Positions 52,407 through 52,806 of a DNA stretch of 64,000 bases are shown here, in pieces. This DNA is from Escherichia phage Turkey5: sequence record PQ471516.1; one strand, given 5' to 3'. Both the position numbers and the translations under genes were made by a program. Within the stretch, counting starts at the first letter, position 1, and each line of letters begins with the position of its first letter. The notes under the pieces are model-generated. The model saw only the letters and a list, made by a program, of their open reading frames with translations, was not told the DNA's origin and did not search any database.

Positions 52407-52434
52407 TTGACATATCAAGCGTCCATGCTATAAT
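52407..52434 (+). promoter_or_regulatory. Sigma70 consensus promoter (TTGACA-16 nt-TATAAT) with overlapping 8-bp inverted repeat
   Basis: -35 TTGACA 52407-52412, -10 TATAAT 52429-52434; palindrome GCGTCCAT-GCTATA-ATGGACGC spans the -10. Confidence 0.65.
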
Positions 52435-52467
52435 GGACGCATCAACAACAAAGAAGGAGAATCAATC

Positions 52468-52665
52468 ATGGCTAAACAACCTAAGAAAAAAGAACCTGAA
52501 GTTAAAGTTAAGAAAGTTAAAGTTATTCAATCTAAAGAACAACGTAATTACGAACTACGTAAAGCAGAAACCCTATCAGGTCTTCAAGCTCTACGTAAAC
52601 AAGGTGTTCTAACTCGTGCTCAATACCGTGAGATAGTAGCACAAAAAGGTTATTGGTCCATTTGA
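52468..52665 (+). CDS. Small basic protein with possible SHOCT-like C-terminus
   Basis: AAGGAGAA RBS; Lys-rich N-terminus KQPKKKEPEVKVKKVKV; C-terminal LSGLQALRKQGVLTRAQYREIVAQ. Confidence 0.5.
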   Translation: MAKQPKKKEPEVKVKKVKVIQSKEQRNYELRKAETLSGLQALRKQGVLTRAQYREIVAQKGYWSI

Positions 52666-52760
52666 AGCAATAAACTGGAGTTCTTCATAAATACTTTCAT
52701 AAGAATAATAATACTTTTTATGAAAATTAAAAAGAACTCCATGTGTTATTTCAGTTTTTC

Positions 52761-52788
52761 ATCCCTGTCTTTTGGCAGGGATTTTTTC
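52761..52788 (+). terminator. Rho-independent terminator
   Basis: hairpin ATCCCTGTCTTTTGGCAGGGAT followed by TTTTTT. Confidence 0.7.
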
Positions 52789-52806
52789 TATCCATAGGAA
52801 AGTGAG

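Follow-up and report, generated by a model that had tools for sequence, protein, structure and literature searches.

Organisation of the region downstream of phoH

The DNA analysed here is a stretch of 64,000 nucleotides (nt) of Escherichia phage Turkey5 (sequence record PQ471516.1, one strand; hereafter the window). The region under study lies at positions 52407-52790, where a promoter overlapped by an inverted repeat precedes an open reading frame (ORF) of 65 amino acids (aa), a long palindrome and a terminator. All of its features are on the plus strand. Upstream is phoH (50950-52389), encoding a protein with a PIN and a PhoH-like ATPase domain (Pfam PhoH, E 1.5e-44; PIN_4, E 7.6e-21; phrog_2765). 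The spacer that follows (52390-52467) has the composition of a composite intergenic cassette of the promoter-early stem-loop (PeSL) type: a second stop codon (TAA), an AT-rich stretch, a sigma70 promoter, an overlapping stem-loop and a Shine-Dalgarno sequence. The 65-aa ORFan (52468-52665, phrog_24119) comes next, its 3' end overlapping a conserved non-coding unit (52659-52787) made of a hairpin with a nested ATAAATA motif, an A/U-rich single strand and a terminator. A 244-aa gene to which no function is assigned (52807-53541) closes the region. On balance we think it probable that these elements form three modules, namely a PeSL-type joint, a highly expressed ORFan and an autonomous non-coding unit that yields an RNA.

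The window matches the Asteriusvirus (121Q/PBECO4-like) jumbo coliphages 121Q, PBECO4, G17 and phAPEC6, and its closest record is vB_EcoM_JNE01 (99.8%). Such phages are under development as therapeutic agents against avian pathogenic E. coli and E. coli O157. The spacer between phoH and the small ORF was aligned across phage records and metagenomic contigs, and its hairpins were compared in 19 relatives. Loci of relatives carry L-numbers (L001 is JNE01, L003 is G17 and L006 is RaK2; L011 and L012 are metagenomic). Motif and repeat counts refer to the 64-kb window, and counts in G17 to a 50-kb stretch. Scans of IMG/VR and of metagenome DNA added nothing beyond 121Q and one G17-like contig.

A consensus promoter overlapped by a stem-loop

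The promoter described in the first-pass annotation of this DNA was found as stated (TTGACA at 52407-52412, a 16-nt spacer and TATAAT at 52429-52434). It is a consensus early promoter, TTGACA-16-TGcTATAAT (52407-52434), matching at 12 of 12 positions, and the TG at 52426-52427 provides an extended -10 element. Perfect consensus promoters are over-represented in the 64 kb (4 vs. 0.19 expected). An AT-rich tract, ATTTGAAAAACATA, lies 5' of the promoter, and its -35 box and spacer are homologous to those of the RaK2 promoter AAAAACATTTGACATATCAATCGT. Transcription is expected to start at approximately 52441. A Shine-Dalgarno sequence, AAGGAG (52454-52459), is located 8 nt 5' of the ATG and is kept in the alignment.

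The 8-bp inverted repeat spanning the -10 box, also pointed out in that annotation, is perfect: GCGTCCAT (52419-52426) is complementary to ATGGACGC (52433-52440) around the 6-nt loop GCTATA, and the stem-loop (52419-52440) has a predicted RNA folding free energy (ΔG) of about -13 kcal/mol. In the window, 29 perfect inverted repeats with a stem of 8 bp or more and a loop of 3-12 nt were counted, about twice the number in shuffled sequences (14.4 ± 4.0), and approximately 0.02 would be expected in a spacer of 78 nt. The half-site GCGTCCAT was found at no other place in the window. As the repeat ends at 52440, 5' of the expected transcription start, it would be absent from the small gene's own mRNA.

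Strong expression of the small gene had been proposed from the promoter, and this part of the proposal is plausible: the perfect extended -10 sigma70 site is accompanied by a strong Shine-Dalgarno sequence and by skewed codon usage. The small ORF uses CGT in 5 of 5, CAA in 7 of 7 and GTT in 5 of 6 cases, a skew that agrees with high expression. The sigma70 promoter would drive strong early expression of the ORFan, whose product combines a Lys-rich tail with a SHOCT-like hairpin of two helices.

The stem-loop is conserved as a structure, not as an operator

A stable hairpin is present shortly 3' of the phoH stop codon in 19 of the 19 relatives (ΔG between -10.6 and -18.8 kcal/mol), although the sequences are unrelated. 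It lies over the -10 box in the window, L015, L021 and A4, and over the -35 box in the G17 group, the Turkey3 group, L010 and L013. In the relatives with long spacers (RaK2, L017, L019, L011 and JNE01) hairpin and promoter are apart, the hairpin taking the form of a canonical terminator, and in three of these (L011, L017 and L019) the separate hairpin is followed by a clear T-run. The window, L015 and L021 have the same GCGTCCAT...ATGGACGC repeat over the -10 box, while A4 has GTGTTCAT...ATGAACAC at the same position, with two compensatory stem changes compared to the window. The G17/121Q and Turkey3 groups carry ATGGGACAT-T-ATGTCCCAT, or a variant of it, over the -35 box; in L010 and L013 the -35 box is enclosed in the loop of a GGTACTG... 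hairpin.

The first-pass annotation had suggested that the small protein is autoregulated through this palindrome, a dimer of the 65-aa protein repressing its own strong promoter at an operator over the -10 box. The palindrome is indeed perfect and GC-rich and covers the -10 box, a chance occurrence of such a repeat at this spot is unlikely, and the protein is basic with two predicted helices. An operator should, however, be conserved or co-vary with its regulator across relatives, and here the two are uncoupled. JNE01 encodes a 100% identical protein behind a promoter free of the repeat; near-identical proteins (95-97%) in the Turkey3 and G17 groups are paired with another palindrome, over the -35 box; and the identical promoter and repeat in L015 and L021 accompany proteins that are just 84-87% identical. 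In A4 the pairing is preserved with two base pairs changed, which fits a hairpin rather than a sequence-specific site. Moreover, RaK2-type relatives have no palindrome at the promoter and the protein matches no DNA-binding family. Since the protein does not track the palindrome and the repeat would lie outside the protein's own mRNA, the alignment does not support a sequence-specific autoregulatory site, and we consider an operator highly improbable. We give as little credit, or even less, to the idea that the palindrome acts on DNA by cruciform extrusion, so that promoter activity would respond to supercoiling. Some of the -10 box would be exposed in the loop, and several further promoters of the window overlap inverted repeats, but an 8-bp stem with a 6-nt loop makes a poor cruciform and the register relative to the promoter is not conserved (over the -10 box, over the -35 box or fully upstream). 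The PeSL stem-loops tested in T4-type phages, too, behaved as terminators (PMC2839356). A false lead is removed in this way, as a palindrome over a phage promoter need not be an operator.

The cassette resembles the PeSL joints of T4-type phages

PeSLs are composite promoter-terminator cassettes of T4-type phages (PMC2839356, Arbiol et al. 2010; PMC4122927, Comeau et al. 2014). A PeSL fills the spacer from a stop codon to the next Shine-Dalgarno sequence and ATG with an AT-rich tract, a strong sigma70 promoter and a stem-loop; the stem-loop may lie over the -10 box, over the -35 box, between them or upstream, and the one tested lowered lacZ expression approximately as much as rrnB T1 (PMC2839356). 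PeSLs act as joints at which ORFans are shuffled, and crossovers have been mapped to the interval from the -10 box to the ATG (PMC2839356; PMC4122927). The cassette of the window is alike in its layout, since the 78-nt spacer (52390-52467) lies wholly between the phoH stop codon and the ATG at 52468 and holds an AT-rich tract, followed by a strong early promoter of the sigma70 type, and a stable stem-loop whose register varies among relatives. It is also alike in its surroundings: the cassette flanks small ORFans, the indel junctions of close relatives fall between the -10 box and the ATG, inserted genes carry their own hairpin and promoter, and there are multiple promoter-hairpin overlaps in the window (at least five others in the 64 kb). 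These further overlaps (2466-2505, 20147-20183, 22527-22561, 23127-23163 and 24031-24059) involve near-consensus sigma70 promoters and suggest that composites of promoter and stem-loop are typical of this genome in general. At 22527-22561 the -35 region itself pairs with the -10 region (ΔG -15 kcal/mol). The genome differs in belonging to the RaK2/121Q-type jumbo phages, a group outside those PeSL papers. By analogy, the promoter palindrome is a member of the PeSL class in a phage group for which these papers did not describe it. Transcripts of phoH would fold the stem-loop at 52419-52440 and would be attenuated, terminated or capped there; by the same analogy, we infer that the target of the stem-loop is phoH RNA.

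Close relatives differ by whole genes at this joint. JNE01 has an insertion of 1.3 kb with its junction at 52440/52441, and similarity to the window resumes exactly at 52441. The insert (L001 2676-3956), which the window lacks, comprises a 426-aa Cys-rich gene with three CapR homology domains (PF21817, E 3.5e-24) and its own hairpin and promoter. In L011 and L012 (1021-1791) a gene for a protein of 253-256 aa with a collagen repeat and a YadA-like membrane anchor is inserted after phoH, again with its own hairpin and promoter. An autotransporter-type anchor of this YadA-like kind is unusual cargo for a lytic jumbo phage. L015 differs from the window by replacement: the promoter and the non-coding unit are 100% identical and phoH 98.7%, but the ORF just 82.7%. 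The replaced segment (L015 2001-2200, compared to 52468-52676 of the window) begins approximately 45 nt inside the ORF, reaches the left border of the conserved hairpin and is similar to the A4 allele. Judged from this alignment, the L015 ORF is a replacement bounded by the cassette.

The cassette at 52390-52467 as a whole would then be a joint at which genes are swapped in and out. PeSL-like joints with both gene insertion and gene replacement in coliphages of 350 kb extend the T4-type mechanism to a second phage group, and they help to explain how jumbo coliphage genomes gather hundreds of ORFans. The first-pass annotation had regarded promoter, small gene, palindrome and terminator as one self-contained cassette. 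Promoter and ORF do move together, but in L011 and L012 they lie on the other side of the hairpin/terminator unit, so that the self-contained cassette holds for its first half. The palindrome and terminator are not just the 3' end of the small gene: in other contexts they are retained as a unit of their own.

A conserved non-coding unit follows the small gene

The long palindrome reported downstream of the gene is present, with TGGAGTTCTT (52676-52685) opposite AAGAACTCCA (52732-52741) and inner repeats between them, and it folds with a z-score of -5.6. Its outer helix (52677-52740) is formed by GGAGTTC (52677-52683) and GAACTCC (52734-52740). The 5' arm of the hairpin contains ATAAATA (52687-52693) within ATAAATAC (52687-52694). 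It is followed by AAGAATAATAATA (52701-52713), four A-R-N triplets in invariant columns, and by an inner helix, TTTTTA / TAAAAA (52715-52733, RNAalifold). The invariant stretch GAACTCCATGTGTTATTTCAGTTTTTC (52734-52760) contains a candidate seed and a U-rich tract 5' of the terminator. The intrinsic terminator reported with the palindrome was also confirmed (ATCCCTGTC-TTTT-GGCAGGGAT, 52761-52782, followed by T6; 52761-52787 in total). It has a 9-bp stem with 5 GC pairs and a 4-nt loop, and was annotated independently in G17 and UE-S1.

The unit is more conserved than the genes around it. Mean pairwise identity is 0.89 in the unit (0.93 in its 3' half), compared to 0.84 in phoH and 0.78 in the ORF. 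It is single-copy in 35 of the 35 Asteriusvirus records (90-100% identity) and occurs once in the window. Near-invariance starts at ATAAATAC. The stretch GAACTCCATGTGTTATTTCAGTTTTTC is invariant in 13-15 variants save for a 4-nt indel, and ACTCCATGTGTT is retained even in L017. In L013 a deletion of 20 nt between AATACTTT repeats spares both the promoter motif and the 3' half. The terminator stem CCCTGTC/GGCAGGG has the same sequence in relatives whose neighbouring proteins are 40-43% identical, and the loop alone varies. Ordinary terminators would instead be expected to drift via compensatory changes. A unit of approximately 130 nt that encodes no protein is thus under stronger constraint than its protein-coding neighbours, and it is the part of the region most worth an experiment.

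The unit also persists independently of its gene context, in three arrangements. In the window it follows the small ORF and precedes the 244-aa gene; G17-type phages lack the 244-aa gene and retain the unit; and in L011 and L012 the unit lies 5' of the small-ORF promoter, after the inserted YadA-like gene, with the terminator duplicated after the ORF. A further, diverged copy was recovered from L017 by a covariance model built from 13 variants (64.9 bits, E about 1e-11); there an 83-aa gene lies between the unit and the small ORF and the unit is directly 5' of a homologue of the 244-aa gene (43% protein identity). The terminator of this copy is identical at 25 of 25 positions. By contrast, the inner helix of L017 has 4 of its 6 pairs changed on both sides (AAUCAC-UGUU-GUGAUU), and in its outer helix one C-G pair is replaced by A-U, a compensatory change, next to two wobble changes elsewhere in that helix. 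No shuffled or slid control reaches the number of compensatory pairs obtained with L017.

No conserved ORF was found in the unit on either strand. A 30-aa ORF on the minus strand of the palindrome is broken by a 1-nt indel in relatives, and an 18-aa ORF on the plus strand, annotated as a coding sequence in some records (e.g. ELP22_0245), is broken by a 4-nt indel. ARAGORN found no tRNA in the unit. Rfam returned no family; the best match, tsr26, scored 40.6 bits against a cut-off of 141 bits and is a composition effect.

The ATAAATA motif behaves as a phage promoter signal

ATAAATA is depleted approximately 10-fold in the window (3 copies vs. 32.3 ± 5.7 expected). The three copies (48064-48070 on the minus strand, 52687-52693 and 60858-60864 on the plus strand) are all intergenic and point at a gene or, in the case of 52687-52693, at the non-coding unit; the two others precede a 302-aa and an 899-aa gene, at 31 and 33 nt from the start codon. 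The motif is also rare in the 50-kb stretch of G17 (8 vs. 31 expected), where 5 of the 6 copies on the coding strand are found 30-45 nt 5' of an annotated start. Depletion together with a fixed distance before genes indicates that ATAAATA behaves as a real promoter signal, and the avoidance is, to judge from these counts, the signature of a phage-specific promoter motif. An accidental copy in the hairpin seems unlikely.

The same motif was predicted as a late promoter in the related phages CBB and GAP32 (e.g. ATAAATACTTGAAA), and a gp55-like sigma factor was reported for CBB (PMC5259590); a sigma factor has also been reported for phage Sharanji. ATAAATAC matches the T4 late promoter TATAAATA at 7 of 8 bases and matches CBB examples such as ATAAATACTTGAAA, and the motif is strongly avoided except upstream of genes. 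Unlike the T4 and CBB late promoters, the copy at 52687 is part of a hairpin arm, with a terminator instead of a gene downstream; the copies in G17 precede genes in a replication-gene region, and the timing class is uncertain. Position and motif together suggest that an ATAAATA promoter may be active at 52687, with a start near 52699.

A probable small RNA or possibly a leader

The unit at 52659-52787 probably encodes a small RNA and, in addition, terminates early transcripts. Its nested ATAAATA promoter would yield an RNA of approximately 90 nt, from about 52699 to 52787, comprising the A-R-N triplets, the small hairpin, the invariant GAACUCCAUGUGUUAUUUCAG, the U-rich tract and the terminator with six U; the same terminator would end early transcripts too. 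In these longer transcripts the 5' arm would pair with, and mask, the invariant GAACUCC, and the arrangement suggests such masking. Enterobacterial Hfq-dependent small RNAs include ones embedded in 3' untranslated regions with an internal promoter, such as MicL. The unit is like Hfq-dependent small RNAs in its predicted size of approximately 90 nt, its Rho-independent terminator with a T6 tail (six U in RNA), the U-rich tract UUAUUUCAGUUUUUC just upstream, the A-R-N repeats, the conserved single strand with the invariant GAACUCCAUGUGUU, and the candidate promoter motif nested in the 3' region of an upstream unit. The A-R-N repeats of AAGAATAATAATA are a possible site for the distal face of Hfq. 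The unit differs from those small RNAs in that its promoter is of the phage type (ATAAATA) rather than sigma70 or sigmaE, in that it has no Rfam match, and in being known from sequence alone. The non-coding RNAs of phage PA5oct were considered as a counterpart and found not to be comparable. The three-module reading takes up the observed anatomy, conservation and independence of the modules and the motif statistics, and adds that the promoter hairpin would act on RNA, that a short RNA would be made and that Hfq may be involved. A more specific version includes a timing switch, in which the early hairpin masks GAACUCCAUGUG and a later start at ATAAATA frees an Hfq-acting RNA of approximately 90 nt. 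This version is tentative and we think it rather unlikely; if true, RaK2/121Q-type jumbo phages would gain their first defined regulatory RNA.

Several observations weigh against the three-module reading. Copies of a PeSL within one T4-type genome share approximately 100 bp and a Gn-loop-Cn stem consensus, whereas the stems of the window are all unlike, GCGTCCAT being unique, and only the promoter hexamers are shared. The window stem-loop has no U-tract (the next bases are ATCAACAACA), so that it is not a canonical intrinsic terminator. The compensatory changes all come from one divergent sequence, L017, whose alignment was fitted to the model, and RNAalifold found no covariation among Asteriusvirus alone. 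No convincing target of the putative seed emerged within the window: the best duplex with any of its 117 start regions (-19.4 kcal/mol) was matched by 49% of shuffled seeds, and the AACACATGGAGT motif occurs in the window at chance level. The 5' arm GGAGTTC is conserved though it lies 5' of the proposed start, and longer early transcripts therefore probably matter too. No transcriptome of any Asteriusvirus was found in the searched literature. Finally, an ATAAATA promoter followed by a terminator and then by a promoterless gene fits a leader with an attenuator.

This last arrangement is the basis of the main rival, according to which there is no independent small RNA and the unit is the promoter and leader of the 244-aa gene, with the terminator as attenuator, and in addition gives any gene upstream of it a 3' end made of a stabilising hairpin and a terminator. 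A 244- or 248-aa gene without a promoter of its own lies directly 3' of the terminator in the window, A4, L010, L013, L015 and the distant L017, and in the window no promoter was found between the terminator and the ATG, so that the gene depends on read-through. In addition, L019 shows an analogous, though unalignable, arrangement (CATAAATA, about 50 nt, a terminator and a 240-aa gene), and the other ATAAATA copies all precede protein genes. However, G17, 121Q and Turkey3-type phages do not have the 244-aa gene and keep the unit 94-95% identical to that of the window, compared to 87% in phoH; in L011 the small-ORF cassette sits between the unit and the 248-aa gene; the window copy of ATAAATA is 113 nt from the ATG and behind a strong terminator, vs. 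30-45 nt elsewhere; and no alternative pairing that disrupts the terminator stem was found. We regard the leader as a real possibility, if a doubtful one. The chances are slight that the unit is conserved as DNA, whether it be an origin, a site bound by a protein or a recombination anchor kept uniform by exchange during co-infection. The L015 mosaic has its right breakpoint at the left edge of the hairpin, the duplicated terminator of L011 would be expected after recombination through the terminator, and the terminator stem is invariant in sequence and not just in pairing. But a unit with one copy per genome has no intragenomic partner, no iteron array is present, and the unit of L010 is 88.5% identical though the ORF DNA is 67% identical. 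Variation in the terminator is confined to the loop, and the changes of the inner helix are compensatory, both being typical of selection on RNA. A replication origin was discarded because there is no switch in GC skew at the unit.

The small protein

The first-pass annotation had described a 65-aa Lys-rich protein with a C-terminus resembling SHOCT. The gene is genuine (phrog_24119, E 1.5e-32), whereas the SHOCT resemblance remains below threshold (PF09851, E 0.047, 13.9 bits vs. a gathering cut-off of 27 bits). Homologues are present in 44 phage records. The family is narrow, and two very large protein searches (5.8 and 1.84 billion proteins) returned nothing but the phage family itself (13 and 6 hits), restricted to Asteriusvirus, with versions of 62-65 aa, and RaK2-like phages, with versions of 87-98 aa. 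In the AlphaFold2 model, residues 1-22 form a disordered Lys-rich tail that leads into a helix (23-45), and a GVLT turn connects this helix to a second one (50-60). The mean predicted local distance difference test (pLDDT) score is 77.6 and rises to about 90 across residues 31-60. The family shares the invariant motif LQxLRKxGVLTRxQxR.

The SHOCT model is weakly matched by 11 of 14 family members (best E 1.6e-4). The small protein is like SHOCT (PF09851; Eberhardt et al. 2013, PMC3581485) in being short and C-terminal, with two helices joined at a Gly and the motif L..L..LR..G.LT...Y. It differs in scoring under the gathering cut-off and in that, in the form of 62-65 aa, the motif is essentially the entire folded part instead of being attached to another domain. 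For a protein of the predicted shape, binding of nucleic acids or oligomerisation is plausible. Foldseek against the PDB found nothing significant, and NCBIfam and PADLOC scans of the small protein found nothing meaningful.

Homology to the helical C-terminal region of the archaeal/eukaryotic ribosomal protein eL19 was considered and rejected. Among PDB sequences, the family profile matches L19e of Haloarcula (E 6e-4, L.eLRdeGtLssSQYRdL), but of Haloarcula alone; the Haloarcula L19e chain tops the Foldseek results with an E of just 1.4; hhalign against human RPL19 gave a probability of 2.3% and aligned a different region; and there is no Pfam L19e hit. The likeness is treated as a shared short helical motif, not as homology. 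A resemblance to uS4 (E. coli S4) was not upheld by hhalign.

Two features distinguish the versions of the protein. The allele of the window and JNE01 has 65 aa instead of 62 aa, the usual TGA being TGG at 52657-52665, and its three extra codons (WSI) read into the start of the conserved non-coding unit. RaK2-type homologues (L006 1226-1522) have a conserved C-terminal segment of approximately 35 extra residues, GLGGVKGVPLV..Y.....KG.KK....K..QW.R, which is absent from all Asteriusvirus versions.

Neighbouring genes and further observations

The 244-aa gene had no hit in Pfam, NCBIfam or PADLOC, yet it is retained in a distant relative (43% identity), and each time the same terminator sequence precedes it. 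A second conserved non-coding leader, absent from the window, where the gene order differs, precedes a gene of 185-187 aa in G17 (L003 1290-1373) and RaK2 (L006 1745-1795), that is, in two genera. It reads AGAATGAC(T/A)TT(C/T)CATTA(G/A)GTTA...TTAACTTAA(A/T)GGAG.

In phAPEC6 the counterpart of the small protein (gp340c) is not listed among the virion proteins. Mass spectrometry of purified virions did reveal the PhoH-like homologue of the same phage (gp341c; PMC7247149), which is unexpected for a gene amid early-type promoters.

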